A stretch of DNA of 64,000 bases from Escherichia coli (GCF_003334255.1 NZ_QOWU01000014.1), one strand, 5' to 3'; positions 26,680-63,607 are shown, counted from the first letter of the stretch. Notes: generated from the letters alone by a model not told the origin. Made by a program: numbers and translations.

Positions 26680-27030
26680 AGTAAATAGCTGACTTATGGA
26701 TGTGCTGGGGATTCTATGTATTTAGCTGTGGCTTTACCATTACTTTTCCCGTTTTTGACTTAAATAGCAATTTACCCGCCAATTCTTGCTGAACATCTAT
26801 ACTTTTTTTGTATTTTTATGCGATTCATTGATTTCTGCTGTACGTGCAGGAAGGAATCGCAGAGCAACAGTGAAAGAATATGGTTGCTAATGATTTTATT
26901 TGATTGATTTCTTTATTGAAAATCAACAATGTGCTTAAAAATCATTCGGGTCGGATTGCCGCGAAAGAAGTGATACACTAGCGCGTCAATATCAGTGCGG
27001 TATCAGTATTCAGGTAGCTGTTGAGCCTGG

Positions 27031-27042
27031 GGCGGTAGCGTG
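27031..27042 (+). promoter_or_regulatory. ops element (GGCGGTAGCGTG) within JUMPStart sequence, RfaH recruitment site in the waaQ operon leader
   Basis: Exact 12-mer ggcggtagcgtg read about 50 nt upstream of waaQ start. Confidence 0.8.
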
Positions 27043-27091
27043 CTTTTTCTGCTTCACCTTAATCGGATAATCTCAACAAAAAGAGTTACTT

Positions 27092-28150
27092 GTGGATAAG
27101 CCATTTCGAAGAATTTTGCTCATTAAGATGCGTTTTCATGGGGATATGTTATTAACTACTCCCGTCATTAGTTCGCTGAAAAAAAATTACCCTGACGCAA
27201 AAATCGATGTGCTGCTTTATCAGGACACCATCCCGATCCTGTCTGAAAATCCAGAGATTAACGCGCTCTACGGCATAAAAAATAAAAAAGCAAAAGCCTC
27301 AGAAAAAATTGCCAACTTTTTTCATCTCATCAAGGTATTACGTGCCAATAAGTATGACCTTATCGTCAATCTTACCGATCAATGGATGGTTGCTATACTG
27401 GTTCGCTTATTAAATGCTCGTGTGAAAATTTCCCAGGATTATCATCATCGGCAGTCTGCTTTTTGGCGTAAAAGTTTCACCCATTTGGTGCCGTTGCAGG
27501 GTGGAAATGTGGTGGAAAGTAACTTATCCGTGCTGACACCATTGGGACTTGATTCGTTGGTGAAGCAGACAACCATGAGTTACCCGCCTGCAAGCTGGAA
27601 ACGTATGCGTCGCGAACTTGATCACGCTGGTGTTGGACAAAATTATGTGGTTATCCAACCTACGGCGCGGCAAATCTTCAAATGCTGGGACAACGCCAAG
27701 TTTTCCGCTGTGATTGATGCCTTACATGCTAGTGGTTATGAAGTCGTTCTGACGTCCGGCCCGGATAAAGACGATCTGGCCTGCGTCAATGAAATTGCGC
27801 AGGGATGCCAGACGCCACCAGTAACGGCGCTGGCTGGAAAGGTGACCTTCCCGGAACTTGGTGCGTTAATCGATCATGCGCAGCTGTTTATTGGCGTTGA
27901 TTCCGCACCGGCGCATATTGCCGCTGCAGTTAATACGCCGCTGATATCGCTGTTTGGTGCGACAGACCATATTTTCTGGCGTCCCTGGTCAAATAACATG
28001 ATTCAATTCTGGGCGGGAGATTACCGGGAAATGCCAACGCGCGATCAGCGTGACCGAAATGAGATGTATCTTTCGGTTATTCCGGCGGCAGATGTCATTG
28101 CTGCTGTCGATAAATTACTGCCCTTCTCCACGACAGGTACGTCGTTATGA
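27092..28150 (+). CDS. waaQ: LPS heptosyltransferase III
   Basis: 352 aa ORF from GTG; first gene after ops element; annotated start may be the internal TTG or ATG 8-12 codons in. Confidence 0.88.
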   Translation: MDKPFRRILLIKMRFHGDMLLTTPVISSLKKNYPDAKIDVLLYQDTIPILSENPEINALYGIKNKKAKASEKIANFFHLIKVLRANKYDLIVNLTDQWMVAILVRLLNARVKISQDYHHRQSAFWRKSFTHLVPLQGGNVVESNLSVLTPLGLDSLVKQTTMSYPPASWKRMRRELDHAGVGQNYVVIQPTARQIFKCWDNAKFSAVIDALHASGYEVVLTSGPDKDDLACVNEIAQGCQTPPVTALAGKVTFPELGALIDHAQLFIGVDSAPAHIAAAVNTPLISLFGATDHIFWRPWSNNMIQFWAGDYREMPTRDQRDRNEMYLSVIPAADVIAAVDKLLPFSTTGTSL

Positions 28151-29271
28151 TCGTTGCTTTTTGTTTATATAAATATTTTCCCTTTGGCGGTTTGCAGCGC
28201 GATTTTATGCGTATTGCTCAGACAGTCGCCGCCCGAGGTCATCATGTTCGGGTTTATACCCAGTCGTGGGAAGGCGAATGCCCTGATGTATTTGAACTGA
28301 TCAAAGTGCCGGTTAAATCGCATACCAATCACGGGCGCAATGCGGAGTATTTTACCTGGGTGCAAAAACATTTACGCGAACATCCCGTCGATAAAGTCGT
28401 TGGATTCAACAAAATGCCGGGGCTGGACGTTTATTATGCCGCTGATGTTTGTTATGCCGAGAAAGTAGCGCAGGAGAAAGGCTTTTTCTATCGCCTGACG
28501 TCACGTTATCGCCATTATGCCGCCTTTGAGCGGGCAACCTTCGAACAGGGCAAGCCGACACAGCTGCTGATGCTGACAGATAAGCAAATCGCCGATTTCC
28601 AGAAACATTATCAGACTGAAGCGGAGCGTTTTCATATTCTGCCACCGGGGATTTATCCTGATCGTAAATATAGCCAGCAGCCAGCCAATAGCCGTGAAAT
28701 CTTCCGTAAGAAGAATGGAATAACCGAACAACAATATTTATTGTTGCAGGTCGGTTCAGACTTCACGCGTAAAGGTGTCGATCGTTCCATTGAAGCACTT
28801 GCTTCTTTACCGGATTCGCTGCGCCACAACACATTGCTATATGTTGTTGGGCAGGATAAACCGCGAAAATTTGAGGCGCTGGCAGAAAAACGCGGCGTGC
28901 GCAGTAATGTTCACTTCTTCTCGGGGCGCAATGATGTCTCGGAATTAATGGCGGCGGCGGATTTATTACTGCATCCTGCCTACCAGGAAGCGGCGGGAAT
29001 TGTGCTGCTGGAAGCGATTACTGCAGGATTACCGGTACTAACAACAGCCGTTTGTGGCTATGCGCCTTATATTGTCGAGGCCAATTGCGGCGAGGCTATT
29101 GCTGAGCCATTCCGCCAGGAAACATTGAATGAGATTTTACGCAAAGCGTTAACGCAATCTTCATTGCGCCAGGCCTGGGCGGAAAATGCGCGACATTATG
29201 CTGATACACAAGATTTATACAGTCTGCCAGAGAAAGCGGCGGATATCATAACGGGTGGTCTGGATGGTTGA
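28147..29271 (+). CDS. waaG: LPS core glucosyltransferase I (GT4)
   Basis: 374 aa ORF; 4 nt overlap with waaQ stop. Confidence 0.95.
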
Positions 29272-30061
29272 ACTTAAAGAGCCGTTTGCCACGTTATGGC
29301 GCGGTAAAGATCCTTTTGAGGAAGTTAAAACCTTGCAGGGTGAGATATTTCGTGAACTGGAAACTCGCCGTACTCTGCGCTTTGAAATGGCGGGAAAAAG
29401 CTATTTTCTCAAATGGCATCGCGGCACGACCCTGAAAGAGATAATCAAAAATTTACTCTCATTGCGGATGCCAGTATTAGGCGCAGACCGCGAATGGAAT
29501 GCGATTCATCGACTGCGGGATGTCGGCGTTGATACTATGTATGGGGTGGCATTCGGCGAAAAAGGCATGAATCCGCTGACCAGAACCTCGTTTATTATTA
29601 CCGAAGATCTGACACCAACCATAAGTCTGGAAGATTACTGTGCTGACTGGGCGACCAACCCACCAGATGTTCGCGTAAAGCGTATGCTTATTAAGCGTGT
29701 CGCGACGATGGTGCGCGATATGCATGCTGCGGGCATTAATCACCGTGACTGTTATATCTGTCATTTCCTGCTGCACTTGCCTTTTTCCGGTAAGGAAGAG
29801 GAGTTAAAAATTTCGGTAATTGACCTGCACCGGGCGCAGCTTCGCACGCGCGTTCCACGTCGTTGGCGCGATAAAGATCTTATTGGACTTTATTTTTCTT
29901 CGATGAATATTGGCCTGACTCAGCGGGATATCTGGCGGTTTATGAAGGTGTATTTTGCCGCTCCGCTTAAAGACATTCTCAAGCAGGAACAAGGACTGCT
30001 GTTGCAAGCAGAAGCAAAAGCCACAAAAATCAGGGAAAGAACGATTCGAAAATCGTTGTAA
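29264..30061 (+). CDS. waaP: LPS core heptose(I) kinase
   Basis: ORF 29255..30061; start trimmed to [14 protein letters not shown] (265 aa); overlaps waaG 3' end. Confidence 0.93.
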
Positions 30062-30103
30062 CCCGTAACTTATTTTTGCCAAAATTTTGGATACAGAATA
30101 AAT

Positions 30104-31111
30104 ATGTCTCAACTCAATGATAGTGACATCATCCTTTTTGAGTATAATTTTCATTATCAAAATATAAGATCTAAAAATACTCTTGATATAGCATTTGGTA
30201 TTGACAGAAATTTTCTTTTTGGATGTGGTGTAGCCATCGCATCTATTCTATTAAACAATAGAGAAATCTCTTGTGAATTTCATGTTTTCACAGATTATAT
30301 CAGTGATAAAGACAAATTATATTTTTCTGATTTAGCAAAACAATATAATTCAAGAATTAATATTTATGTTATCAATTGTGATAAGCTGAAGTCATTACCA
30401 AGCACGAAAAACTGGACTTACGCAACATATTTTCGATTTATAATTGCAGATTATTTCTATCATAAACATGAAAAAATACTATATCTTGATGCAGATATTG
30501 CTTGCAAGGGTAGTATTAAAGAACTCTTAGATTATCAATTTTCTACTAATGAAATTGCCGCAGTTGTAGCTGAAAGAGATGTTGAATGGTGGCAAAATCG
30601 AGCCTCGGTATTAACTACACCACAGTTAGCTTCTGGATATTTCAATGCTGGTTTTTTACTGATAAATATTGATGAGTGGAATCTAAATAACATTTCGTCA
30701 AAAGCTATTGAAATGTTGCGTGACCCAGATTGGGTAAGTAAAATCACCCACCTTGATCAAGATGTACTGAATGTATTATTGAATGGTAAAGTGAAGTTTA
30801 TTTCGGAGAAATATAATACCCGATATAGTATTAACTATGAATTAAAAGACAAAGTTGATAATCCAGTCAATGATGACACCGTGTTTATACACTATGTGGG
30901 ACCTACAAAACCCTGGCATGAGTGGGCTGACTATCCGGTGTCACGTAGTTTTTTGATCGCCAAAGCAGCTTCTCCGTGGAGTAAAGAAGATTTACTTAAA
31001 CCTGTAAATAGCAATCAGTATCGGTATTGTGCAAAACATAAATTTAAACAAAAGCATTATATGGCAGGCATTTTTAATTATTTAAAGTATTATAAAGAAA
31101 AATGCTTCTAA
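30104..31111 (+). CDS. waaI: GT8-family LPS outer-core hexosyltransferase (R3-type WaaI-like)
   Basis: 335 aa ORF, low GC; GT8 features (DxD region LYLDADI, C-terminal HYxGxxKPW-like motif); position after waaP. Confidence 0.65.
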   Translation: MSQLNDSDIILFEYNFHYQNIRSKNTLDIAFGIDRNFLFGCGVAIASILLNNREISCEFHVFTDYISDKDKLYFSDLAKQYNSRINIYVINCDKLKSLPSTKNWTYATYFRFIIADYFYHKHEKILYLDADIACKGSIKELLDYQFSTNEIAAVVAERDVEWWQNRASVLTTPQLASGYFNAGFLLINIDEWNLNNISSKAIEMLRDPDWVSKITHLDQDVLNVLLNGKVKFISEKYNTRYSINYELKDKVDNPVNDDTVFIHYVGPTKPWHEWADYPVSRSFLIAKAASPWSKEDLLKPVNSNQYRYCAKHKFKQKHYMAGIFNYLKYYKEKCF

Positions 31112-31136
31112 AGATTTAAGGTTAAAATAATTCATT

Positions 31137-31844
31137 ATGATATATAATAAAACGATAAATGGGTTGAAAGTTTTCATAAAAGATAATGATCCCTTTTATG
31201 AGCAAGTTCTAAATGACTTTTTAACTTGCAGGGTTAAAACATTAAAAGTTTTTCGTTCTATTGATGATACTAAAGTCATTCTTATTGACACTGCTCGTGG
31301 ACCTCTTGTACTTAAAGTTTATGCGCCAAAGCATAAAATGACCGAACGTTTCTTAAAATCTTGCATAAAAAAAGATTATTATGAAAATTTAATTTATCAA
31401 ACCGATCGGGTACGTGGTGAAGGCATCCAATCAATTAATGACTATTTTTTGCTAGCTGAACGTAAAACATTAAATTTCGCTCATTATTATATTATGCTCA
31501 TTGAGTATATTGAAGGTGTCGGGTTAAATGAGTATTTGGAAATTTCTGAAGATCTGAAGGATCAATTATCAGAATCGATAAAAGAGTTGCATCAGCATGG
31601 AATGGTGTCTGGCGATCCTCATAAAGGAAATTTTATAGTATCCGAAAAAGGTTTAAGACTAATTGACCTTTCAGGTAAAAAAACAACCGCTGTTTTAAAA
31701 GCAAAAGATCGCATTGATCTTGAACGGCACTATAATATAAAAAATGAATTGAAAGACTTTGGCTATACATATCTTATATTCAAAAAGAAAATTAAAAAAG
31801 TAATCAGGGATGTAAAAGTCAAACTAGGATTGAAGAGCAAATAA
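31137..31844 (+). CDS. waaY: LPS core heptose(II) kinase
   Basis: 235 aa low-GC ORF, kinase-like; position between two GT8 genes. Confidence 0.75.
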   Translation: MIYNKTINGLKVFIKDNDPFYEQVLNDFLTCRVKTLKVFRSIDDTKVILIDTARGPLVLKVYAPKHKMTERFLKSCIKKDYYENLIYQTDRVRGEGIQSINDYFLLAERKTLNFAHYYIMLIEYIEGVGLNEYLEISEDLKDQLSESIKELHQHGMVSGDPHKGNFIVSEKGLRLIDLSGKKTTAVLKAKDRIDLERHYNIKNELKDFGYTYLIFKKKIKKVIRDVKVKLGLKSK

Positions 31845-31868
31845 TGATTATGATGAAGGGTAATTAAA

Positions 31869-32882
31869 TTGGATTTTAAACATCTTACTCAATTTAAAGA
31901 TATAATTGAACTGGACAAGCGCCCCGTTAAACTTGATGAACGGGAAACGTTTAATGTCTCATGGGGTATTGATGAGAACTACCAGGTTGGGGCTGCGATT
32001 TCAATTGCTTCAATTCTTGAAAATAATAAACAAAACAAATTTACCTTTCACATAATCGCTGATTACTTAGACAAAGAGTATATTGAATTATTATCACAAT
32101 TAGCAACGAAGTATCAAACAGTAATTAAATTATATCATATTGATTCTGAGCCATTGAAGGCGCTACCTCAATCAAATATCTGGCCAGTATCTATTTATTA
32201 TCGTTTGCTTTCATTTGATTATTTTTCTGCGCGATTGGATTCATTATTATATCTTGATGCTGATATCGTCTGTAAGGGTTCATTGAACGAGTTAATAGCA
32301 TTAGAGTTTAAAGATGAATATGGGGCAGTGGTAATTGATGTAGATGCTATGCAAAGTAAAAGCGCTGAGCGTTTGTGTAATGAGGATTTTAACGGTAGCT
32401 ATTTTAACTCTGGTGTAATGTATATTAATTTACGGGAATGGTTAAAACAAAGACTAACGGAAAAATTCTTTGATCTATTATCAGATGAGTCAATTATAAA
32501 AAAATTAAAGTACCCGGATCAAGATATTTTAAACTTAATGTTTCTACATCATGCTAAAATATTACCGAGAAAATATAATTGTATTTATACTATAAAGTCA
32601 GAATTTGAAGAAAAAAATAGTGAATATTACACCCGGTTTATTAATGATGACACTGTCTTCATACATTATACTGGTATAACTAAGCCATGGCATGATTGGG
32701 CGAACTACGCCTCTGCAGATTATTTTCGTAATATTTATAATATATCACCATGGAGAAATATACCTTATAAAAAAGCTGTTAAAAAACATGAGTACAAAGA
32801 AAAATATAAACACTTGCTTTACCAGAAAAAATTTCTCGATGGTGTTTTTACAGCAATTAAATATAATGTTATGAAAGGTTAA
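31869..32882 (+). CDS. waaJ: GT8-family LPS outer-core glycosyltransferase (WaaJ-like)
   Basis: 337 aa ORF, paralogous to 30104..31111 (LYLDADIVCKGS, FIHYTGxTKPWH). Confidence 0.65.
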   Translation: MDFKHLTQFKDIIELDKRPVKLDERETFNVSWGIDENYQVGAAISIASILENNKQNKFTFHIIADYLDKEYIELLSQLATKYQTVIKLYHIDSEPLKALPQSNIWPVSIYYRLLSFDYFSARLDSLLYLDADIVCKGSLNELIALEFKDEYGAVVIDVDAMQSKSAERLCNEDFNGSYFNSGVMYINLREWLKQRLTEKFFDLLSDESIIKKLKYPDQDILNLMFLHHAKILPRKYNCIYTIKSEFEEKNSEYYTRFINDDTVFIHYTGITKPWHDWANYASADYFRNIYNISPWRNIPYKKAVKKHEYKEKYKHLLYQKKFLDGVFTAIKYNVMKG

Positions 32883-32890
32883 TATACGAG

Positions 32891-34033
32891 ATGGTTGATA
32901 AAATAATATTTACGGTTACTCCTATTTTTTCAATTCCTCCTCGCGGAGCGGCTGCTGTTGAAACGTGGATGTATCAGGTTGCTCAGCGTACCAATTTTCC
33001 AAATCGTATTGTTTGTATCAAAAATCCAGGATACTCAAATTACACCTTTGTTAATGATAATTGTAGTATTCATAGGGTTGGATTCAGTCGCATATATAAG
33101 CGGTTATTTCAAAAATGGACAAGACTTGATCCTCTTCCATATTCACAGAGAATATTGAATATTGCACATGATTTTCCTATAACGAAAGAAAGTGTTATTG
33201 TAGTTCATAATAGCATGAAGCTATACACTCAAATTCGTAAGCGAGCTCCTCAGGCAAGAGTGGTTATACATATGCATAATGCATTTGAACCAAAATTGCT
33301 TGAGCAAAATGTTAAAATGATAGTGCCTAGTTTATACTTGAAAAAGTATTACCAATCTTATTTAGCAAATGCAGATATTGAGATTGTACCAAATGGAATT
33401 GATTTAGAAACCTATCAATCTAATTTTCAGCCGATCACTAGAAGCGAACTTAATATCTCCCCTGAAGAGAAAATTATTTTTTATGCTGGGCGTATCGTCC
33501 CTGACAAAGGCATATTGCTGTTGATGCAATCATTCGAAAAATTGGCCGCTGCTCACAAAAATTTAAAATTAGTTGTGATTGGTGATTATACAGAAATGAG
33601 TAAAAGTGACAAAGGTGCATATCAACGCAATGTCAGGGAAATTGCAAAACGTTTGAAGGATCGTTGCATTATGTTAGGAAGCATACCGCCTGAAAAGATG
33701 CATTGTTATTACCCACTGGCAGATTTAGTCGTCATTCCTTCCCAGTTCCAGGAACCATTTTGCATGGTGGCAATTGAAGCTATGGGTGCTGGTAAGCCTG
33801 TTTTAGTGAGTACGCGTGGGGGGATGACGGAATTTGTCAAAGAAAATACTACGGGATTCCATTTAAAAGAACCTATGACTGCAGACTCCATAAGCAGCGA
33901 TATTTTAAAAACGTTAGCGAATCCTGAATTAACAGCAGTTGCAAAGCAAGGTCAGGACTTTGTGTTTGATCACTACAGTTGGGATGGCGTAACTCAAAGA
34001 TTCGAAGAGGTTATTCATAATTGGTTTGAATAA
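32891..34033 (+). CDS. waaD: GT4-family glycosyltransferase, terminal outer-core transferase (R3 WaaD-like)
   Basis: 380 aa low-GC ORF with GT4 C-terminal motifs (EPFCMVAIEAMGAGKPV); last gene before convergent waaL. Confidence 0.55.
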   Translation: MVDKIIFTVTPIFSIPPRGAAAVETWMYQVAQRTNFPNRIVCIKNPGYSNYTFVNDNCSIHRVGFSRIYKRLFQKWTRLDPLPYSQRILNIAHDFPITKESVIVVHNSMKLYTQIRKRAPQARVVIHMHNAFEPKLLEQNVKMIVPSLYLKKYYQSYLANADIEIVPNGIDLETYQSNFQPITRSELNISPEEKIIFYAGRIVPDKGILLLMQSFEKLAAAHKNLKLVVIGDYTEMSKSDKGAYQRNVREIAKRLKDRCIMLGSIPPEKMHCYYPLADLVVIPSQFQEPFCMVAIEAMGAGKPVLVSTRGGMTEFVKENTTGFHLKEPMTADSISSDILKTLANPELTAVAKQGQDFVFDHYSWDGVTQRFEEVIHNWFE

Positions 34034-34035
34034 AT

Positions 34036-34066
34036 AAAAAGGCCGCATTATGCAGCCTTTTTTATT
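34036..34066. terminator. bidirectional terminator between convergent waaD and waaL
   Basis: A-run, hairpin ggccgcattatgcagcc, T-run. Confidence 0.65.
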
Positions 34067-34068
34067 TT

Positions 34069-35277
34069 TTACTTGTTTTTCATCGCTAATAATAAGCCGG
34101 CGTAAACGCCTAATAAATTTGGTTCAATTTGTTCTACGTTTCCACGGATAACAAAATAACCTATAAAAGATAGTAAGATTATATAATATGCATTATATGG
34201 TGAGCGATATTTATTCTTGACGCCATTTTTTATACACTCTTTCAATATTGCACAGTATAGCATCATAAGACTTACCAGCCCTAATAAACCAGTGCCAAAC
34301 CAGATGAATAGCGCAAAATTATGTGGCCCTATTGATTGTCTAAAGGTCCATTCTGGATAATCAATGACACGTTTATTATAGACATCTTTATATGCAACGT
34401 TACCGTAACCATAACCAATAACAGGATTTTCTAATATTAGATCGAGTGCGCTGCCTTGAGTACCATTTGCATAGCGATAAGAACTATTAGTTTGTTGAAG
34501 TTTATACGTTAGCTTTGCGGTCATCTCCTTATGTGTGAAAATAACCGACAATGCAATGATGGCAACCATTACTCCTACTAATAGTAACTTCCATTGTTTA
34601 AACATCAGAATCCATATTAATCCAATGACTAACACGGAAAGCCAGGCCCCTCTGGATAAAGTTCCTAATATCAGAAAAATAAAAATAACGCTTAGAACCA
34701 CAAAAGAAATGCGGTATTTTGCTGATTTGATAAGCCAGAGATTTAACAATGCAGGGAATAAAAAGACCATCGAGTCAGAAATGCTACGGTGTCTATAATC
34801 TGCGAATGGCATTATCCCTTGTTGATAGTCCTTATAATAGGTAATCAATTCAGAAAAACAGCGTAAGCCCAACGCACTAATAAATGAGAAGAAAACGATT
34901 TTTTCGACATCTTCTCTTTTCTCGTCTCTCAATATGATCGGTATTGCTATTGTGCATAGTAAAGTATTCTCAATAATAGCTTTGAAAATTTCCTTCATGC
35001 TAGCACCTGCATCAGGGGATTGAAGAAGTGACAGCAATGCAGCAATAGTTAATATGGCAACACTACCAAAAAGAAATGTTTTAAATAGTGAGAGATAGTG
35101 TTTTGGCCGTTTGCAGAGATAGACGATTGTCGTTATTGTCATAAGAATAACAATAAGATGTTTATACCTTGTAATCCCACCCAAAAAATAGGTGGTAATG
35201 AATAAGAATACGAGAGCTCTGTTCCAGTACGCTATCCAGTTTTTTTTCTCGAGAGAGAAAAATAATGTTGAGGTCAT
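34069..35277 (-). CDS. waaL: O-antigen ligase
   Basis: 402 aa polytopic membrane ORF, low GC; immediately downstream of waaC with ATGA-type overlap. Confidence 0.85.
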   Translation of the reverse strand: MTSTLFFSLEKKNWIAYWNRALVFLFITTYFLGGITRYKHLIVILMTITTIVYLCKRPKHYLSLFKTFLFGSVAILTIAALLSLLQSPDAGASMKEIFKAIIENTLLCTIAIPIILRDEKREDVEKIVFFSFISALGLRCFSELITYYKDYQQGIMPFADYRHRSISDSMVFLFPALLNLWLIKSAKYRISFVVLSVIFIFLILGTLSRGAWLSVLVIGLIWILMFKQWKLLLVGVMVAIIALSVIFTHKEMTAKLTYKLQQTNSSYRYANGTQGSALDLILENPVIGYGYGNVAYKDVYNKRVIDYPEWTFRQSIGPHNFALFIWFGTGLLGLVSLMMLYCAILKECIKNGVKNKYRSPYNAYYIILLSFIGYFVIRGNVEQIEPNLLGVYAGLLLAMKNK

Positions 35278-36266
35278 CTTATCTCCGATGTCAACTTATT
35301 GGTTATTATTTCAAGATTTAAATTTTGAAAAACGGTTTGAGCTGGCAAATCTGCAAGAGACATACTTGTAGAACGACACTCTACTTGATTCTTCCCATAC
35401 CCACCAATTAATCCCGGATCGGTTGGTCCATAAACCGTGATATTGGGTCTATCCAGTGCCGCCGTTAAATGGCTTAACCCCGTATCCACCGACACTACAA
35501 ATTTAGCCCCGGCCAGCACGCGGGCAACGCCTTCCAGACTCATCTTCGGCAATACTTCAACATAAGCAAATCCTTCCGCCAGTCGTTTCGCCCGTTCTTC
35601 CTCATGCGGCGCGCCCCACGGAAGTTTAATCCGTATTCCTGAATCAGCCAGTAAACCAATCAATTCTCGCCAGTGTTCTTCCGGCCAGTGTTTATCATCA
35701 CGGGTCGTCGCATGAAGAAATACGGCATATTCGCCAGCATCTGTAGGCAGGTTCGTCAGAAAATGCTGTGCGATAGCATAATCGCCCTGGGTTTGCGGTT
35801 TGCTATAGCCCAAACTTTTGGCAAACAGTTCGCGGGTGCGTTCTACGGCGTGCTGCTGTTTTGCAATATGATGCTTACGATTGTAAAACAGGCTGGCTAA
35901 AGGTTCGCGAGCGGTTTGCCAGTCCATGCCATGCTTTACGCCATGCGCCAGACGCGTCACCAGCGCCGCGCTTTTTACCAGCCCCTGAGCGTCGATAACT
36001 GCGTCATAGTTCTCTGCTTGTAGCGCTTCACGAAACGCTTTGCGTTCCGCTTTTATGGGGGCCGAGAACCAGGCTTTACGCCAGCGACGTATTGCCACAG
36101 GAATAACTCGCTCAACGGCAGCGTGCCAGGAAGGAATCTGTGCGAACCCTTCTTCCACCACCCAGTCAAACTTAATCCCTGGGATTGCCTGCTGGGCATC
36201 AGTGAGTGCGGGCAACGTATGGAGAACATCGCCCATCGACGATGTTTTAACGATCAAAACCCGCAT
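35274..36266 (-). CDS. waaC: LPS heptosyltransferase I
   Basis: 330 aa ORF MRVLIVKTSSMGDVLHTLPALTDA... Confidence 0.95.
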   Translation of the reverse strand: MRVLIVKTSSMGDVLHTLPALTDAQQAIPGIKFDWVVEEGFAQIPSWHAAVERVIPVAIRRWRKAWFSAPIKAERKAFREALQAENYDAVIDAQGLVKSAALVTRLAHGVKHGMDWQTAREPLASLFYNRKHHIAKQQHAVERTRELFAKSLGYSKPQTQGDYAIAQHFLTNLPTDAGEYAVFLHATTRDDKHWPEEHWRELIGLLADSGIRIKLPWGAPHEEERAKRLAEGFAYVEVLPKMSLEGVARVLAGAKFVVSVDTGLSHLTAALDRPNITVYGPTDPGLIGGYGKNQVECRSTSMSLADLPAQTVFQNLNLEIITNKLTSEIR

Positions 36267-36269
36267 CCG

Positions 36270-37316
36270 TCAGGCTTCCTCTTGTAACAATAGCGCGTTG
36301 AGTTCTTCCAGTACGCGCTGGGGAGTAATGTCGATTAAGCTCTGGTGATAACCCTCCGCAGCGTCACCTTTACGCACTTTGTGATAGCCGGTAATCAAAC
36401 GGATCACGCGCGCTTTATGGGATAGCGGCGGTGTGAAGTCCGGGCTACTCGGACCATACAGGGCAACCAGCGGACGATTGAGCGCCGCCGCAACATGCAT
36501 CAGGCCAGAATCGTTAGTGACAATGGCTTTACAGGCTGCAATCAGGATAACCGCTTGATCAAGCTGTGTTTCCCCCGCCAGGTTCCGACACCATGCCTGC
36601 TGCTCGGTATTCAAAGCGGCAAGAATCTCATTGCCCGCTTCATGATCTTTCGCCGAGCCAAACAGAACCACCTGATAACCTTCATCAATCAGCTGCTTTG
36701 CCAGCTCCGCATAGTGGTAGTGTGGCCAGCGTTTTGCCGGACCAAACTCCGCACCCGGGCAAAAACCAATCATCGGACGTTCTGATGAAAGCGAAAATTG
36801 ATTACAGGTATATGATTTTTCACCTTCGCTCACCTGCAACTGCGGCCATAACAATGGCTGCGGCAGATCTTGTGCTGTGCGCATAATGCCTTTGTCATAG
36901 GCCAGCGCTATATAGCGTTCCACCATTAGCGGCCAGGCTTCTTTATCGAGCACGCGTACATCGTTGAGTAAACCGTAGCGCATCTCGCCGCGCCAGCCGG
37001 TGCGATGAGGAATACCCGCGAAGAAAGGCACTAATGCAGATTTGAAGGAGTTGGGTAAGACGTAGGCGCGGTCGTAGCGCTTTTCACGCAGGCTATGACC
37101 CAGTTTGCGGCGTTCGCCGATTTCCAGCGCTCCGTGACCGAGAGGCATAGGAATAGCTTCGTTAACTTCCGGCATCCGCGATAATAATGGACGGCACCAT
37201 GCCGGTGCCATCACATCGATTATCGCCTGGGGATAGCGCGCCTGGAGCGTGCGATAGAGACTTTGCGACATCATCATGTCGCCAACCCAAGACGGGCCGA
37301 TCACCAGTATTTTCAT
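36270..37316 (-). CDS. waaF: LPS heptosyltransferase II
   Basis: 348 aa ORF MKILVIGPSWVGDMMMSQSLYRTLQ... Confidence 0.95.
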   Translation of the reverse strand: MKILVIGPSWVGDMMMSQSLYRTLQARYPQAIIDVMAPAWCRPLLSRMPEVNEAIPMPLGHGALEIGERRKLGHSLREKRYDRAYVLPNSFKSALVPFFAGIPHRTGWRGEMRYGLLNDVRVLDKEAWPLMVERYIALAYDKGIMRTAQDLPQPLLWPQLQVSEGEKSYTCNQFSLSSERPMIGFCPGAEFGPAKRWPHYHYAELAKQLIDEGYQVVLFGSAKDHEAGNEILAALNTEQQAWCRNLAGETQLDQAVILIAACKAIVTNDSGLMHVAAALNRPLVALYGPSSPDFTPPLSHKARVIRLITGYHKVRKGDAAEGYHQSLIDITPQRVLEELNALLLQEEA

Positions 37317-37325
37317 GCAGAGCTC

Positions 37326-38258
37326 TTATGCGTCGCGATTCAGCCAGGCCATGTATTCCGTTACACCTTCAGCAACGGTTTTGAACGGTTTGTCGTAACC
37401 CGCCGCGCGCAGATTCGTCAGATCTGCCTGAGTGAACGCCTGATAGCGGCCTTTCAGTTTATCCGGGAACGGAATGTATTCGATCTGGCCTTTCTTGTGA
37501 TAAGCCAGCGTAGCATCAGCTACCGCCTGGAAGGATTCCGCACGACCAGTACCGAGATTGAAGATGCCGGAAACGCCATTTTCCAGGAACCACAGATTCA
37601 CATCAGCCACGTCGCCCACATAGACGAAGTCGCGTTTGAAGTTCTCGCTACCTTCAAACAGCTTCGGTGATTCACCGTTGTTAAGCTGGGTGTTGAGATG
37701 GAAAGCGACGCTCGCCATGCTGCCTTTATGGCCTTCACGCGGTCCATAAACGTTGAAATAACGGAAGCCAACAATCTGCGAGTTCGCTTCAGGCAGGATT
37801 TGACGAACATATTCATCAAACAGGAATTTTGAGTAACCGTAGACGTTCAACGGTTTTTCGTACTCGCGGGATTCAATAAAGTCGGAGGTGCGTCCGCCGT
37901 AGGTGGCTGCGGAAGAAGCGTACAGGAACGGGATTTCACGCTCCAGGCAGTAGTGCAGCAGCTCCTTGGAGTATTGATAGTTGTTATCCATCATATACTT
38001 GCCGTCCCACTCGGTGGTGGAAGAGCACGCGCCTTCGTGGAAAATCGCTTCGACATCGCCGAACTCTTCGCCAGCCATAATCTGGATCAGGAAGTCTTCC
38101 TTATCCATATAGTCTGCGATATTCAGATCCACCAGGTTCACAAACTTGGTGCCGTCTTTCAGGTTGTCCACCACCAGAATATCGGTGATGCCTTTATCAT
38201 TCAGGGCTTTAACGATGTTGCTGCCGATAAAGCCCGCGCCGCCGGTAACGATGATCAT
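37326..38258 (-). CDS. hldD: ADP-L-glycero-D-manno-heptose 6-epimerase
   Basis: 310 aa [22 protein letters not shown] (Rossmann fold). Confidence 0.97.
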
Positions 38259-38561
38259 AACTGTAACCTTCGAATTATGGAGTCAGAGACAATCTCAGAC
38301 ACGAATGTCTGTAATCATACCATCACATCCGAATCCCTTCAGCCCTTTACATAGAGGTGCAAGGATGCTAATTGCAACAAACTAGTTTGGGTTTTAGCTA
38401 GTCCTTCATGGCGGATGTTGGTTTTGCATGTGAATAGTGCTTTAGTATCAATATTCCGATGTATGATAAATAACGGAAGCATTTGAATGGATAATATACA
38501 GTATACATTCTATTAATATTTATGATATAATTCTTTTTTTATATTAATGGTCTTATTAGTA

Positions 38562-39419
38562 ATGAAATCATCCACCACAATTATCACTGCATATTTTGAC
38601 ATTGGTAGAGGGGATTGGACTGCTAATAAAGGGTTCCGTGAAAAACTAGCTCGTTCAGTTGATGTTTATTTTAGTTACTTTGAGCGTCTGGCCGCACTTG
38701 AAAATGAGATGATTATTTTCACTTCTCCCGATTTGAAACCAAGGGTTGAAGCGATTCGCAACGGAAAACCAACAACGGTTATCGTTATCGATATAAAAAA
38801 GAAATTTAGATATATCAGAAGTCGTATCGAAAAAATTCAAAAAGATGAGTCGTTTACAAATAGACTTGAGCCTCGACAATTAAAAAACCCAGAGTACTGG
38901 TCACCAGAGTATGTTTTGGTATGTAACCTTAAGGCCTATTTTGTAAATAAAGCTATCAACATGGGCTTAGTGAAAACGCCTCTTGTTGCGTGGATAGATT
39001 TTGGCTATTGCCGTAAGCCAAATGTAACTCGAGGATTGAAAATTTGGGATTTCCCATTTGATGAAAGTAAGATGCATCTTTTCACTATAAAAAAAGGGCT
39101 TACTGTCACATCTCAACAACAGGTTTTTGATTTCATGATTGGCAATCATGTATATATTATTGGGGGCGCAATTGTTGGTTCACAGCATAAATGGAAAGAA
39201 TTCTATAAATTAGTTCTGGAAAGTCAAAAAATAACACTAAATAATAACATTGTGGACGATGACCAGGGCATTTTTGTCATGTGCTATTACAAACGCCCCG
39301 ATCTCTTCAACCTAAACTATCTGGGGAGAGGAAAATGGTTCGATTTGTTTCGCTGCTTCAGGAGTAACACTTTAGGGGCAAAAATGCAGGCGCTGAGAAT
39401 TTTCCTTTCAAGAAAATAG
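38562..39419 (+). CDS. htrL: HtrL/YibB family protein
   Basis: ORF 38547..39419, AT-rich; start trimmed to Met6; divergent from hldD. Confidence 0.82.
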   Translation: MKSSTTIITAYFDIGRGDWTANKGFREKLARSVDVYFSYFERLAALENEMIIFTSPDLKPRVEAIRNGKPTTVIVIDIKKKFRYIRSRIEKIQKDESFTNRLEPRQLKNPEYWSPEYVLVCNLKAYFVNKAINMGLVKTPLVAWIDFGYCRKPNVTRGLKIWDFPFDESKMHLFTIKKGLTVTSQQQVFDFMIGNHVYIIGGAIVGSQHKWKEFYKLVLESQKITLNNNIVDDDQGIFVMCYYKRPDLFNLNYLGRGKWFDLFRCFRSNTLGAKMQALRIFLSRK

Positions 39420-39693
39420 GTTTCCCTCCATTAGTGGGTAGCGTTTTGATACCAACTGAGATAGGAAAAATGATGCTTTGGCATCATTTTTTCTTTTTAT
39501 ATCAATGCAGTAAAATCAATCATCATTATGCCCAGCCAAAACTGTACAGTTTTTCTACTATCTGTAGGTGTTGAGAGACATCAAGTTACACGTTATTTAT
39601 CCTGAATTTTGCAGAAGTGTTAACGCGTTATCTCGTCGCGACCTATAAGTTTGGGTAATATGTGCTGGAATTTGCCCTGTCTGGAGAATCGCA

Positions 39694-42163: not shown

Positions 42164-43198
42164 ATGATGAACAGCACCAATAAACTTAGTGTTATTATTC
42201 CGTTATATAATGCGGGCGATGATTTCCGCACTTGTATGGAATCTTTAATTACGCAAACCTGGACTGCTCTGGAAATCATTATTATTAACGATGGTTCAAC
42301 GGATAATTCTGTTGAAATAGCAAAGCATTACGCAGAAAACTATCCGCACGTTCGTTTGTTGCATCAGGCGAATGCTGGCGCATCGGTGGCGCGTAATCGT
42401 GGGATCGAGGTGGCAACGGGCAAATATGTCGCTTTTGTCGATGCTGACGATGAAGTCTATCCCACCATGTACGAAACGCTGATGACCATGGCGTTAGAGG
42501 ACGACCTCGATGTAGCGCAGTGCAACGCTGACTGGTGTTTTCGTGAAACGGGAGAAACCTGGCAATCTATCCCCAGCGATCGCCTTCGCTCAACCGGTGT
42601 ATTAACCGGCCCGGACTGGCTGCGGATGGGGCTTTCTTCGCGCCGTTGGACTCACGTTGTCTGGATGGGGGTTTATCGCCGCGATGTTATTGTTAAAAAT
42701 AACATTAAATTTATTGCCGGATTACATCATCAGGATATTGTCTGGACAACAGAATTCATGTTTAATGCGCTGCGTGCGCGATATACCGAGCAATCATTAT
42801 ATAAATATTATCTGCATAATACGTCAGTGAGTCGGTTGCATAGACAAGGGAATAAAAACCTTAATTATCAACGTCACTATATTAAGATTACCCGCCTGCT
42901 GGAGAAATTAAATCGAAATTATGCCGACAAAATTACGATTTATCCGGAATTTCATCAGCAAATAACTTACGAAGCATTGCGTGTTTGCCATGCGGTGCGC
43001 AAAGAGCCGGATATTCTTACCCGCCAACGGATGATTGCCGAGATATTTACTTCCGGTATGTATAAGCGCCTGATTACCAATGTGCGCAGCGTGAAGGTGG
43101 GTTACCAGGCGTTACTGTGGTCTTTCCGCTTATGGCAATGGCGCGACAAAACGCGGTCGCACCATCGCATTACGCGTAGCGCCTTTAATTTGCGCTAG
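42164..43198 (+). CDS. waaH: GT2-family glycosyltransferase WaaH/YibD
   Basis: 344 aa ORF; GT2 N-terminus (LSVIIPLYNAGDDF, DADDEVYP). Confidence 0.88.
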   Translation: MMNSTNKLSVIIPLYNAGDDFRTCMESLITQTWTALEIIIINDGSTDNSVEIAKHYAENYPHVRLLHQANAGASVARNRGIEVATGKYVAFVDADDEVYPTMYETLMTMALEDDLDVAQCNADWCFRETGETWQSIPSDRLRSTGVLTGPDWLRMGLSSRRWTHVVWMGVYRRDVIVKNNIKFIAGLHHQDIVWTTEFMFNALRARYTEQSLYKYYLHNTSVSRLHRQGNKNLNYQRHYIKITRLLEKLNRNYADKITIYPEFHQQITYEALRVCHAVRKEPDILTRQRMIAEIFTSGMYKRLITNVRSVKVGYQALLWSFRLWQWRDKTRSHHRITRSAFNLR

Positions 43199-46985: not shown

Positions 46986-47229
46986 TGCGACAACCTCATA
47001 CTCAAGAGTCAAAATTTGCGTAATTTTACTACAGCTGAATCGATAAAATAGCCTCTGAAGATCAAAATATACGACCGCTCGCGGCAAGCCGATGCCAGAT
47101 TTACGCTTTTTTTTCGTCGCGCCCCGCAAAATTGCATTCCAGTTAACGCGCTGGCTGTATTTGCCGCACCGCGCAGGTATACTCCTTTCCTGGTTTTTTT
47201 AATCACTACGTCGGGAGTTGTTACCCCCC

Positions 47230-47661
47230 ATGCAAGAAATTATGCAATTTGTTGGCCGTCATCCCATACTGAGTATCGCCTGGATCGCGTTACTGGTGGC
47301 GGTTCTTGTGACTACGTTTAAGAGCCTGACCTCGAAAGTGAAGGTGATTACTCGTGGTGAAGCTACGCGTCTGATCAACAAAGAAGACGCTGTGGTTGTG
47401 GATTTACGTCAGCGTGATGACTTCCGTAAAGGCCATATCGCAGGTTCTATTAATCTGTTGCCGAGCGAAATCAAAGCCAACAATGTTGGTGAGCTTGAGA
47501 AGCACAAAGACAAACCGGTTATCGTGGTAGACGGTTCTGGCATGCAGTGCCAGGAGCCTGCAAACGCACTGACGAAAGCTGGTTTTGCGCAAGTATTCGT
47601 GCTGAAAGAAGGCGTCGCTGGCTGGGCTGGCGAAAACTTGCCTTTGGTGCGCGGCAAATAA
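47230..47661 (+). CDS. yibN: rhodanese-domain inner membrane protein YibN
   Basis: ORF 47218..47661; start trimmed to [12 protein letters not shown]. Confidence 0.88.
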
Positions 47662-47802
47662 TTTACCTGTCGTCTTTCATGATGCAGGCCGTTAGCTGCA
47701 ATTAGGCCCCCAGCGACTTATTGTTATAAGCTTCTGGGGACACTCCATTTTGCTGCCGCCCTGCAACATGAAATTTCAGGGTAAAAAAACAGGAGCTAAT
47801 TT

Positions 47803-48054
47803 ATGGCCAATGTTGAAATCTATACCAAAGAAACCTGCCCGTATTGCCATCGTGCAAAAGCACTGCTGAGCAGCAAGGGCGTGAGTTTCCAGGAGCTGCC
47901 GATCGATGGCAACGCCGCCAAGCGTGAAGAGATGATCAAACGCAGCGGTCGCACCACGGTTCCCCAGATTTTTATTGACGCACAGCACATTGGCGGCTGT
48001 GATGACTTGTATGCATTGGATGCACGTGGTGGACTGGATCCCCTGCTGAAATAA
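47803..48054 (+). CDS. grxC: glutaredoxin 3
   Basis: 83 aa ORF with CPYC active site. Confidence 0.96.
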
Positions 48055-48116
48055 CGTGTGAACGTTGGCATTACATTGCGCAGTATTTAAGGACAACACT
48101 TAAGGGTTTTCTACAC

Positions 48117-48584
48117 ATGTCAGAACAAAACAACACTGAAATGACTTTCCAGATCCAACGTATTTATACCAAGGATATCTCTTTCGAAGCGCCGAACGCG
48201 CCGCACGTTTTCCAGAAAGATTGGCAACCAGAAGTTAAACTTGATCTGGATACGGCATCTTCCCAACTGGCAGATGACGTATACGAAGTGGTACTGCGTG
48301 TTACCGTAACGGCCTCTTTGGGCGAAGAAACCGCGTTCCTGTGTGAAGTTCAGCAGGGCGGTATTTTCTCCATCGCGGGTATCGAAGGCACCCAGATGGC
48401 GCATTGCCTGGGAGCATACTGCCCGAACATTCTGTTCCCGTATGCTCGTGAGTGCATCACCAGCATGGTATCCCGCGGTACATTCCCGCAACTGAACCTT
48501 GCGCCGGTTAACTTCGATGCGCTGTTCATGAACTATTTGCAGCAGCAGGCTGGCGAAGGTACTGAAGAACATCAGGATGCCTGA
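48117..48584 (+). CDS. secB: protein-export chaperone SecB
   Basis: 155 aa [32 protein letters not shown]. Confidence 0.97.
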
Positions 48585-49603
48585 TGAACCAACGTAATGC
48601 TTCAATGACTGTGATCGGTGCCGGCTCGTACGGCACCGCTCTTGCCATCACCCTGGCAAGAAATGGCCACGAGGTTGTCCTCTGGGGCCATGACCCTGAA
48701 CATATCGCAACGCTTGAACGCGACCGCTGTAACGCCGCGTTTCTCCCCGATGTGCCTTTTCCCGATACGCTCCATCTTGAAAGCGATCTCGCCACTGCGC
48801 TGGCAGCCAGCCGTAATATTCTCGTCGTCGTACCCAGCCATGTCTTTGGTGAAGTGCTGCGCCAGATTAAACCACTGATGCGTCCTGATGCGCGTCTGGT
48901 GTGGGCGACCAAAGGGCTGGAAGCGGAAACCGGACGTCTGTTACAGGACGTGGCGCGTGAGGCCTTAGGCGATCAAATTCCGCTGGCGGTTATCTCTGGC
49001 CCAACGTTTGCGAAAGAACTGGCGGCAGGTTTACCGACAGCTATTTCGCTGGCCTCGACCGATCAGACCTTTGCCGATGATCTCCAGCAGCTGCTGCACT
49101 GCGGCAAAAGTTTCCGCGTTTACAGCAATCCGGATTTCATTGGCGTGCAGCTTGGCGGCGCGGTGAAAAACGTTATTGCCATTGGTGCGGGGATGTCCGA
49201 CGGTATCGGTTTTGGTGCGAATGCGCGTACGGCGCTGATCACCCGTGGGCTGGCTGAAATGTCGCGTCTTGGTGCGGTGCTGGGTGCCGACCCTGCCACC
49301 TTTATGGGCATGGCGGGGCTTGGCGATCTGGTGCTTACCTGTACCGACAACCAGTCGCGTAACCGCCGTTTTGGCATGATGCTCGGTCAGGGCATGGATG
49401 TACAAAGCGCGCAGGAGAAGATTGGTCAGGTGGTGGAAGGCTACCGCAATACGAAAGAAGTCCGCGAACTGGCGCATCGCTTCGGCGTTGAAATGCCAAT
49501 AACCGAGGAAATTTATCAAGTATTATATTGCGGAAAAAAAGCGCGCGAGGCAGCATTGACTTTACTAGGTCGTGCACGCAAGGACGAGCGCAGCAGCCAC
49601 TAA
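48584..49603 (+). CDS. gpsA: NAD(P)H-dependent glycerol-3-phosphate dehydrogenase
   Basis: 339 aa ORF; start overlaps secB stop by 1 nt. Confidence 0.97.
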
Positions 49604-60867: not shown

Positions 60868-62004
60868 ATGGATCTATTGATTGTTTTAACTTACGTGGCG
60901 CTGGCGTGGGCGGTCTTTAAAATCTTCCGCATTCCGGTAAATCAGTGGACGCTGGCGACGGCGGCGCTGGGAGGCGTGTTTCTGGTGAGTGGTTTGATTT
61001 TGTTGATGAACTACAACCACCCTTACACTTTTACCGCGCAAAAGGCAGTGATAGCGATCCCTATCACGCCACAGGTGACGGGAATTGTTACTGAAGTCAC
61101 TGACAAGAATAATCAGCTTATTCAAAAGGGCGAGGTGCTTTTTAAGCTCGACCCGGTTCGTTACCAGGCGCGAGTTGACAGACTTCAGGCTGACCTGATG
61201 ACGGCGACGCATAATATAAAGACGCTGCGTGCGCAGCTCACTGAAGCGCAGGCCAACACCACCCAGGTTTCAGCGGAGCGCGACCGTCTGTTTAAAAATT
61301 ATCAACGTTACTTGAAAGGCAGCCAGGCGGCGGTGAATCCGTTCTCGGAACGTGACATCGACGATGCGCGGCAAAATTTCCTCGCGCAGGATGCGCTGGT
61401 GAAAGGCTCGGTGGCGGAGCAGGCGCAGATCCAGAGCCAGCTCGACAGTATGGTTAACGGCGAGCAATCGCAGATTGTGAGCTTAAGAGCGCAACTTACT
61501 GAAGCAAAATATAACCTTGAGCAGACTGTCATTCGCGCGCCGAGCAATGGCTACGTTACTCAGGTACTGATCCGCCCAGGTACATACGCAGCTGCCTTGC
61601 CGCTGCGTCCGGTGATGGTCTTCATCCCCGAGCAAAAACGGCAAATTGTCGCCCAATTTCGGCAAAACTCGCTGTTACGTCTGAAACCCGGCGATGATGC
61701 GGAAGTGGTGTTTAACGCGCTACCTGGGCAGGTGTTTCACGGCAAACTGACTAGTATTTTACCTGTCGTGCTAGGCGGTTCTTATCAGGCGCAGGGGGTA
61801 TTGCAATCATTAACGGTCGTGCCCGGCACGGACGGTGTGCTGGGAACCATTGAACTGGACCCTAACGATGATATCGATGCCTTACCCGACGGCATCTACG
61901 CCCAGGTGGCGGTTTACTCCGACCATTTCAGCCATGTTTCGGTGATGCGGAAAGTGCTGCTAAGAATGACCAGCTGGATGCATTATCTTTATTTGGATCA
62001 TTGA
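60868..62004 (+). CDS. yibH: HlyD-family membrane fusion protein YibH
   Basis: 378 aa ORF; N-terminal TM, coiled-coil, C-terminal beta-barrel HlyD-like region. Confidence 0.88.
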
Positions 62005-62463
62005 GGGGGAGGGGGGAGATTATGGAACTTTGCTCCTTGTAAGGACTAATTATTTTTGCATATTACTTCATTAGCTGCGATGATTTTTCTTTAATATTCA
62101 TTATGTTAATAAGTTCTGGATGAGTGTGCTCTCATTGGATTTTTTATCCGTCTTGTTCTGCCGCAGGATGAGACTATACATCGTCGAGATCGCAATGATG
62201 ATATGAGTTGTTCCTCCTGCGACGGCTCTAATCAAAAAAGAGCAGGAGTGCTTTTCCATCTATTGCGATGATGGCTTTATTATCTGAAGGATGACAGTCA
62301 CATTTAAAAAATATTTAATCTATAGATCACAATGTAGGGTCATGGAATATATGTATACAACTATTTTCTTCTTCACTTTTAATTATCGTATTCATTATAA
62401 AACTAAGTTAAAAAAACTCCTGGAGAGTGAGTTATTAATATATTTTTAAATAAAATTAAGTTA

Positions 62464-62984: not shown

Positions 62985-62989
62985 ATTTT

Positions 62990-63600: not shown

Positions 63601-63607
63601 ATTGCTT

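Follow-up and report, generated by a model that had tools for sequence, protein, structure and literature searches.

The 64,000-nucleotide stretch of Escherichia coli DNA analysed here (NZ_QOWU01000014.1; hereafter the window) almost certainly carries a waa (rfa) locus of the canonical chromosomal R3 type. Four of the five proteins encoded by its core-type-specific block, WaaI, WaaJ, WaaD and WaaL, are 100% identical in amino acid sequence to those of O157:H7 and the fifth, WaaY, differs by one amino acid (99.6%), the R3-specific typing amplicon is present at its published size, and, among 5426 complete E. coli genomes, 1364 have the same block. Descriptions of the R3 locus, of its low GC content and of its mosaic origin go back to the late 1990s. 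Gene content, gene order, families, identity and distribution were computed here, and enzyme activities and ligation are taken from publications on identical proteins. The assignment groups the strain with the roughly one quarter of E. coli that have the R3 cassette, most EHEC included, and from its R3 core one can predict the core-specific phages and antibodies and the O-antigen ligation chemistry that apply to it.

Organization of the waaQ operon and the convergent waaL gene

The ORF map places waaQ-waaG-waaP-waaI-waaY-waaJ-waaD on the plus strand, with waaL next, convergent to them on the minus strand and joined to waaC-waaF-hldD. All nine waa genes in the window are full length and intact, and the R3 gene set is annotated in the same way in O157:H7 and in the human commensal strain G6/7. 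The features of the locus are as follows:

27031..27042, plus strand: ops element GGCGGTAGCGTG, exact match in the waaA-waaQ intergenic region, 61 nt 5' of the waaQ start
27092..28150, plus strand: waaQ (rfaQ), LPS heptosyltransferase III, R1/R3/R4-type allele (NCBIfam NF007742 equivalog, 709 bits)
28147..29271, plus strand: waaG, GT4 glucosyltransferase I, Glc I to Hep II (identity to O157/R1/R4 WaaG; annotation of collinear genomes)
29264..30061, plus strand: waaP, heptose(I) kinase (NF011703 equivalog, 480 bits)
30062..35385, no strand: low-GC R3-specific block, 5324 bp, 33.2% GC (breakpoints by blastn and MAFFT against K-12, R1, R2 and R4)
30104..31111, plus strand: waaI, GT8 UDP-galactose:(glucosyl)LPS alpha-1,3-galactosyltransferase, 335 aa (Pfam Glyco_transf_8 and Glyco_transf_8C; NF011718 equivalog, 620 bits against a cutoff of 461)
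31137..31844, plus strand: waaY, heptose(II) kinase, 235 aa (NF007684 RfaY equivalog, 390 bits)
31869..32882, plus strand: waaJ, GT8, 337 aa, TTG start (Pfam Glyco_transf_8 and Glyco_transf_8C)
32891..34033, plus strand: waaD, GT4, 380 aa (Pfam Glycos_transf_1)
34036..34062, no strand: hairpin AAAAAGGCTGCATAATGCGGCCTTTTT, in the 35-bp gap where waaD and waaL converge, stop codon to stop codon
34069..35277, minus strand: waaL, O-antigen ligase specific to R3, at the end of the hldD-waaF-waaC-waaL operon, 402 aa (Pfam Wzy_C; NF012031 RfaL equivalog, 693 bits)
35274..36266, minus strand: waaC, heptosyltransferase I (NF008204 equivalog)
36270-37316, minus strand: waaF, inner-core gene (NF008162 equivalog)
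37326-38258, minus strand: hldD/rfaD, inner-core gene (100% aa identity to K-12)

A preliminary description of this DNA had listed a GT8 gene, the waaY kinase, a second GT8, a GT4 and a convergent waaL after waaQ-waaG-waaP, and ORFs, Pfam and NCBIfam families all agree with this order. It had also counted the locus as one gene shorter than that of K-12, a figure that has to be corrected to three, as four genes stand here in place of seven (waaS, B, O, J, Y, Z, U).

The ops element confers RfaH-dependent antitermination on the waaQ operon, and we take GGCGGTAGCGTG to be the RfaH recruitment site within the JUMPstart leader. At the other end of the operon, a terminator scan found that hairpin AAAAAGGCTGCATAATGCGGCCTTTTT has a 12-pair stem with 5 G-C pairs, flanked by an A-run and a T-run, and it is probably a bidirectional intrinsic terminator, judging from these sequence features. 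A promoter scan of the locus returned 33 sites versus 31.9 expected from shuffled sequence, that is, no excess. The waaH gene is intact in the window (344 aa) and a pseudogene in G6/7; the idea that the two share the pseudogene was rejected, the stop codon being one of the two differences between them.

A low-GC block specific to the R3 type

The left edge of the block coincides with the waaP stop codon, as alignments to both R1 and R4 end at 30061. The right edge, at 35385/35386, falls inside waaC near its 3' terminus: the final ~110 nt of this gene (35274-35385) are type-specific, every core type diverges past ...GGGTATGGGAAGAATCA in the 3'-end alignment, and in the search of 5426 genomes non-R3 matches begin at 35386. 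WaaC is accordingly 330 aa long here versus 319 aa in K-12. An end of the block at 35277, as first proposed, is thus too early, since type-specific sequence runs on to 35385, into waaC.

The block had been described as AT-rich against flanks of about 51% GC, and windowed GC (33%) bears this out. GC content by gene ranges from 30.5 to 37.0%, and is 33.1% over 30104-35277 versus 51.2% in the remaining window; among 481 windows of equal size taken from the rest of the stretch, GC averages 52.0% (sd 2.1%) and never falls below 45.5%, which puts the block at a z-score of -9.1. The mosaic origin that had been suggested for the outer-core genes agrees with the published view of a horizontal, mosaic, low-GC origin (PMC8715443).

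Assignment to the R3 core type

Protein comparison upholds the proposed R3 arrangement waaI-waaY-waaJ-waaD, with 99.6-100% identity to O157:H7 and at most 58% to other types. At the nucleotide level, the block shows 4 mismatches in 5324 nt relative to O157:H7, versus a difference of 0.6-2.4% in the flanking waaQGP, waaCF and hldD; these flanking-gene differences reflect a different strain background. The best non-R3 counterparts of the block proteins (WaaO, WaaY, WaaK and WaaL of R2, WaaT of R1/R4) reach 42-58% identity, WaaY having 52-58% to its counterparts in other core types. WaaL has no significant match to the WaaL of K-12, R1 or R4, and 52% identity to that of R2; the R3-specific waaL allele is itself a criterion for in-silico typing (PMC8715443).

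Five type-specific primer pairs, published in PMC13293308 (Table 2), were tried on the window by in-silico PCR. The R3 pair has exact sites at 31953-31975 (R3-R, in waaJ) and 32954-32973 (R3-F, in waaD), giving the published product size of 1021 bp, and the R1, R2, R4 and K-12 pairs have no match in the window at up to 3 mismatches. The K-12, R1, R2, R4 and O157 loci used as controls were all typed correctly.

Published oligonucleotides and O157:H7 provide the link to the R3 prototype strain F653 (AF019745). Eight long oligonucleotides served for the engineering of F653 (PMC9927288); they total ~455 nt, cover less than 10% of the block, and match at 100% and at the expected positions. Of four short F653 verification primers, one matches exactly, one with one mismatch, and the other two gave no hit at the search threshold (blastn-short). 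Over the part covered, these matches are consistent with identity to the prototype. Deletion arms designed for S. flexneri 2457T and O157 ATCC 43895 likewise match at 100% at the expected gene ends (PMC3184986, PMC11394844), and both ends of waaI are matched at 100% by the F653 oligonucleotides and by the S. flexneri and O157 deletion arms.

The 1364 genomes that carry the block (at least 95% identity, full length) include O157:H7 and O111:H8. The commensal strain G6/7 is collinear with the window, with 2 differences in 49,487 positions and the same annotation. Gene content and order, the diagnostic amplicon, the low-GC block and its breakpoints are all the same as in the known R3 locus of O157:H7, a type that also includes the prototype F653 and Shigella flexneri 2a.

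Predicted core structure and assembly

The R3 outer core has the structure Glc III-(1,2)-Glc II-(1,2)-[GlcNAc]-Gal-(1,3)-Glc I, and the R3 enzymes have reportedly been characterised in O157:H7. In the pathway that we propose, the waaQ operon would be transcribed from a promoter situated 5' of the ops/JUMPstart leader, these transcription signals being predicted from sequence. WaaG would transfer Glc I to Hep II, WaaP would phosphorylate Hep I, WaaQ would add Hep III and WaaY would phosphorylate Hep II. The R3-specific enzymes would then extend the outer core: WaaI would attach an alpha-1,3-linked Gal to Glc I, WaaJ an alpha-1,2-linked Glc II to the Gal, and WaaD an alpha-1,2-linked Glc III to Glc II, after which the R3-specific WaaL would join the undecaprenyl-PP-linked O antigen to the finished core. 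The 5.3-kb block (30062-35385) as a whole is, in this view, one of five alternative cassettes that are exchanged among E. coli lineages by recombination at this site.

According to PMC9927288, WaaI adds Gal I onto Glc I (citing Kaniuk 2004) and WaaJ adds an alpha-1,2-linked Glc II onto the Gal, an activity under which PGAP also names the O157 protein identical to WaaJ. PMC3899070 and PMC9927288 describe WaaD as a glucosyltransferase that adds an alpha-1,2-linked Glc III onto Glc II; a contrary account found GlcNAc to be missing from a waaD mutant (PMC3184986). NCBI names WaaD an 'N-acetylglucosaminyltransferase' on the basis of a subfamily-level HMM (NF012028), a product name that conflicts with the published biochemistry. 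The gene has been reported to be exclusive to R3 strains (PMC3899070), and the K-12, R1 and R4 reference loci contain no homologue of it except for a distant match to WaaG.

The overall composition of the R3 core is given as Glc3-Gal-GlcNAc-Hep3-Kdo (PMC7504096). An R3 chemotype is predicted for this strain from its genotype, as the O157-type R3 structure depends in part on the plasmid-borne wabB, which lies outside the chromosomal window and, together with a deacetylase gene next to it, accounts for GlcNAc/GlcN on Hep III. Chances seem about even that, with an R3 genotype, the strain has either an incomplete core, through regulatory or unlinked defects, or a glycoform unlike that of O157:H7 through the absence of wabB. 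The GlcNAc on HepIII requires wabB (bioRxiv 10.1101/536201), and a wabB-like GT4 gene (pO157p80) occurs in 540 of the 5426 genomes versus 1364 with the R3 locus, nearly always on plasmids of EHEC serotypes; no such gene was found in the near-identical strain G6/7 over the initial 50 kb of its first plasmid. An incomplete core is at odds with the intact, full-length state of the nine waa genes, and loss of wabB affects a non-stoichiometric inner-core decoration alone, leaving the type-defining R3 outer core unchanged.

Relationship to other core types and origin of the locus

Among the other core types, R2 (waaQGP-S/wabA-B-O-J-Y-Z-K) offers the nearest non-R3 matches (WaaI 58%, WaaY 58%, WaaD 57% to WaaK, WaaL 52%), and, as in the Salmonella-type locus, it also has a convergent waaL and a GT4 gene that ends the waaQ operon. 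It differs by three extra genes absent from the window (a GT8 annotated at the waaS position, waaB and waaZ) and by a waaQGP of the K-12 lineage; moreover, R2 WaaK transfers GlcNAc, and R3 WaaD reportedly transfers glucose. An R2 core type is not found in the window, where waaB and waaZ as well as the 610 bp R2 amplicon are absent.

K-12 has its locus at the same chromosomal site, and its WaaA, WaaF and HldD are 100% identical in amino acids to those of the window, with htrL present in both. Yet K-12 WaaS, WaaB, WaaZ, WaaU and WaaL have no homologue in the window, and its WaaO and WaaY are 56-57% and its WaaJ 40% identical to the window proteins. To the right of 35386, the flank of K-12 is again 99.5-100% identical. 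The earlier statement that the strain is not K-12 therefore holds for the core type, but not for the right flank, where laboratory strains of the K-12 lineage show 100% identity over 35386-39419.

R1 and R4 share with the window a waaQGP that is ~99% identical as far as the waaP stop codon. WaaQ has 99.4% amino acid identity to O157, R1 and R4 versus 73% to K-12 and R2, and WaaG has 99% to O157/R1/R4 versus 89.6% to K-12. The description of waaQ-waaG-waaP as conserved thus applies in comparison to R1/R4 (~99% aa) but not to K-12/R2 (73%, 88-90% and 84%, respectively). In R1/R4, waaL lies on the strand of the waaQ operon, whereas that of the window is convergent, and the outer-core genes are waaO, waaT and waaW, with waaV (GT2) in R1 or waaX (GT25) in R4. 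Homologues of waaV and waaX are absent from the window, and the best R1/R4 GT8 matches reach 37-44%.

Shigella flexneri also has an R3 core, and the deletion arms for waaI, waaJ and waaD of S. flexneri 2457T match the window at 100%, so that the window might be thought to come from this organism rather than from E. coli; this is very improbable given the collinearity with E. coli G6/7 (2 differences in 49,487 positions). Least probable of all, to the point of being negligible, is that the locus represents a hybrid or variant which resembles R3 in gene order alone and would make a different outer core: core-type hybrids are known (K-12/R2 and R1/R4; PMC13293308) and the locus is mosaic, with an R1/R4-like waaQGP, a K-12-like right flank, and WaaD and WaaL at 57% and 52% identity to R2 WaaK and WaaL, but all five proteins are 99.6-100% identical to those of O157:H7, with 4 differences in 5324 nt, and the same mosaic is common to O157:H7 and all 1364 R3-locus genomes, so that it characterises R3 as such rather than a new hybrid.

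The adjacent gene htrL

The adjacent gene htrL/yibB is present alongside every R3 locus. The idea that it marks the K-12 and R3 types alone was considered and rejected, as ST131, with a K-12-type outer core, is devoid of htrL, and one R1 strain carries it. The only Pfam family assigned to HtrL is PF09612, a family of unknown function, and a sequence search against solved structures gave nothing significant. By fold comparison, the predicted fold of HtrL resembles that of GT-A glycosyltransferases. We speculate, on the basis of this co-occurrence and of the predicted fold, that htrL/yibB might be a candidate for the GlcNAc transferase of the R3 outer core; it would be a cheap candidate to test for the R3 outer-core sugar that has no assigned enzyme.

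The outer-core locus is of R3 type

Reference LPS core loci were taken from K-12 MG1655, O157:H7 (the R3 reference), two R1 strains, one R2 and one R4, and their types verified in silico with the five published type-specific primer pairs (PMC13293308, Table 2), each locus yielding only its own amplicon, of the published size. The low-GC cassette of the window consists of four outer-core genes and a convergent waaL, which overlaps the waaC stop by 4 nt on the ORF map. Positions, order and families of these genes had been described correctly: the ORF map agrees to the base, and Pfam and NCBIfam concur.

Genes of the core locus, with protein identities to O157:H7 and to the best non-R3 reference
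27092-28150, +: waaQ (ORF map)
28147-29271, +: waaG (ORF map)
29264-30061, +: waaP (ORF map)
30104-31111, +: waaI, gene 1, Glyco_transf_8 and C-terminal domain (Pfam); O157:H7 100%, R2 WaaO 58%
31137-31844, +: waaY, gene 2, RfaY heptose(II) kinase equivalog; O157:H7 99.6%, R2 58%
31869-32882, +: waaJ, gene 3, GT8, scoring below the cutoff of the gene-1 equivalog; O157:H7 100%, R1/R4 WaaT 44% (R2 WaaJ 42%)
32891-34033, +: waaD, gene 4, Glycos_transf_1/GT4; O157:H7 100%, R2 WaaK 57%
34069-35277, -: waaL, gene 5, Wzy_C and RfaL equivalog; O157:H7 100%, R2 52%
35274-36266, -: waaC (ORF map)

WaaI scores 620 bits against the NCBIfam "LPS 3-alpha-galactosyltransferase" equivalog (cutoff 461). In the protein comparison with the R1-R4 and K-12 loci, all five cassette products are closest to O157:H7; WaaD has no counterpart in the K-12, R1 and R4 reference loci, and WaaL no significant match to K-12, R1 or R4 WaaL. 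The R3 primers find exact sites at 31953-31975 and 32954-32973, spanning the published 1021 bp, and the other four pairs have no match in the window with up to three mismatches tolerated. Long homology arms and primers with which the R3 prototype F653 was engineered (PMC9927288) match at 100% at the expected gene boundaries, as do oligonucleotides designed for S. flexneri 2457T (PMC3184986) and O157:H7 ATCC 43895 (PMC11394844). Collectively, the O157:H7 identities, the sole R3 amplicon and the exact oligonucleotide matches rule out a hybrid core type, and on sequence grounds the locus is of canonical R3 type; from this genotype we infer an R3 chemotype for the strain. The preliminary description, which had proposed an R3 set and a non-K-12 outer core, was thus correct about what is a textbook, already known locus, and the corrections it needs are minor (gene count, boundary, waaQGP conservation and the name of the WaaD product). 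It had called the set one gene shorter than that of K-12, which is wrong: seven genes (waaS, B, O, J, Y, Z, U) lie between waaP and waaL in K-12 versus four in the window, a difference of three.

Using megablast against 5426 complete E. coli genomes, we found the entire block (30104-35277) in 1364 at ≥95% identity, 1119 of them at ≥99%, single-copy and chromosomal without exception. Identity reaches 99.9% in O157:H7 and 100% in the commensal strain G6/7, which is collinear with the window and differs at 2 of 49,487 positions. A second search with waaP, waaI and waaY returned the same 1364 genomes, and O111:H8 was also matched.

Composition, edges and mosaic structure

The AT-richness noted for the block was borne out by a windowed GC calculation: 33.1% GC versus 51.2% in the remaining window (z = -9.1 against 481 windows of this length from the rest of the 64 kb, none of which falls below 45.5%), with individual genes at 30.5-37.0% and neighbours at 47-54%. 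On the left, the ∼99% identity to R1 and R4 ends at the waaP stop codon (30061); on the right, all core types part ways inside the final ∼110 nt of waaC, and matches of non-R3 genomes among the 5426 all start at 35386. These sharp edges place the cassette at 30062-35385, so that 30104-35277 holds as the gene span but understates the type-specific DNA. The cassette end also makes the WaaC C-terminus type-specific (330 aa versus 319 in K-12).

The description of waaQ-waaG-waaP as conserved applies to R1, R4 and O157 (∼99% protein identity) but not to K-12 and R2 (73%, 88-90% and 84%, respectively). At the nucleotide level, identity to K-12 is 62-83%, divergence setting in near 26,700, in the waaA-waaQ intergenic region. 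Region 26700-30061, from this intergenic region through waaP, falls into two allele lineages of 62-83% nucleotide identity, one comprising the R1, R3 and R4 loci and an ST131 locus with a K-12-type outer core, the other K-12 MG1655 and R2. The waaQGP lineage is thus uncoupled from outer-core type, forming a second mosaic layer. To the right, by contrast, 35386-39419 matches laboratory strains of K-12 lineage at 100%. The locus is thus a mosaic of at least two layers, in agreement with the proposed mosaic origin and with the literature (PMC8715443). Compared with O157:H7, the cassette differs at only 4 of 5324 positions, versus 0.6-2.4% in flanking and intervening genes, a signature of cassette exchange between lineages.

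Proposed assembly pathway

Enzyme activities are those published for identical proteins; the sequence features come from this analysis.

27031-27042: ops element GGCGGTAGCGTG, 61 nt upstream of waaQ (sequence match)
34036-34062: palindromic hairpin AAAAAGGCTGCATAATGCGGCCTTTTT, 12 pairs, flanked by A and T runs

The ops element is the RfaH recruitment site, as expected for so long an operon. By the published activities, WaaG contributes Glc I; WaaP, WaaQ and WaaY modify the heptose region; WaaI, WaaJ and WaaD contribute Gal, Glc II and Glc III, respectively, and WaaL ligates the O antigen. O polysaccharide ligation is reportedly lost in a waaD mutant (PMC3899070). The hairpin fills the gap between the stop codons of waaD and waaL, which are transcribed towards each other, and is a plausible bidirectional intrinsic terminator for both operons.

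PGAP names WaaD a "lipopolysaccharide N-acetylglucosaminyltransferase", from a subfamily-level model common to WaaK. Two papers citing Kaniuk et al. treat it as a glucosyltransferase (PMC3899070, PMC9927288), and one Shigella paper assumes a GlcNAc role (PMC3184986). A 2025 typing paper (PMC13293308) mixes up R3 waaD with the epimerase gene rfaD/hldD, sometimes named waaD.

GlcNAc addition to the R3 core

The R3 cassette enzymes cover only Gal, Glc II and Glc III, and the addition of GlcNAc to the outer-core galactose is attributed to "an unknown protein" (bioRxiv 10.1101/536201). One gene to the right of hldD is a testable candidate, based on its co-occurrence with R3 and its divergence pattern.

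38562-39419, +: htrL/yibB CDS, on a 1283-bp segment (38307-39589) of ∼36% GC

This segment, between hldD and kbl, varies in presence among genomes and is missing from the R1, R2, R4 and ST131 (K-12-type) reference loci. The R3 match reaches into it in all 1364 R3-locus genomes; htrL occurs in 1958 genomes overall (only 8 matches cover <80% of the gene), with essentially every R3 locus versus ∼15% of non-R3 genomes. The gene also occurs outside R3, in K-12 and one R1 strain. Like the R3 cassette, the segment is almost identical to O157:H7 (2 of 1283 positions different), although waaC-waaF-hldD, which lie between the two, show background divergence. HtrL is predicted (pLDDT 91) to adopt a GT-A fold, most similar to that of retaining alpha-glycosyltransferases of the GT6/GT8 families. 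Yet hitch-hiking over 3 kb would suffice to explain the association with R3, and with circumstantial evidence of this kind we regard HtrL as an improbable, if possible, missing GlcNAc transferase.

In the O157-type R3 core, the Hep III GlcNAc/GlcN is added by the plasmid-borne WabB (bioRxiv 10.1101/536201).

47223-48766 of pO157 Sakai, outside the window: pgdA/ecf1 deacetylase and wabB/ecf2 GT4 (pO157p79-p80)

The deacetylase-GT4 pair, both members of which this Hep III addition requires, is present in only 540 of the 5426 complete genomes, nearly always on plasmids of EHEC serotypes; most R3-locus genomes thus lack wabB and, judging from gene content, would be unable to make this glycoform by the pgdA-wabB route. 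We also observed that waaH/yibD (42164-43198, +) is intact in the window (344 aa) and carries an internal stop in G6/7; over 49.5 kb the two sequences differ only at this position, 42947, and one other. WaaH is a PhoB-regulated GT2, the HepIII glucuronosyltransferase of K-12. Reportedly, no LPS product of WaaH could be detected in O157:H7, an R3-core serotype (bioRxiv 10.1101/536201).

A second low-GC patch (33-37% GC) occupies the window end, 62001-64000, and corresponds in the collinear G6/7 annotation to an Rhs element tail downstream of yibH, comprising orphan fragments of RHS C-termini, an Imm57 immunity gene with a frameshift, yibG and yibA. Low GC is the usual composition of Rhs tips.
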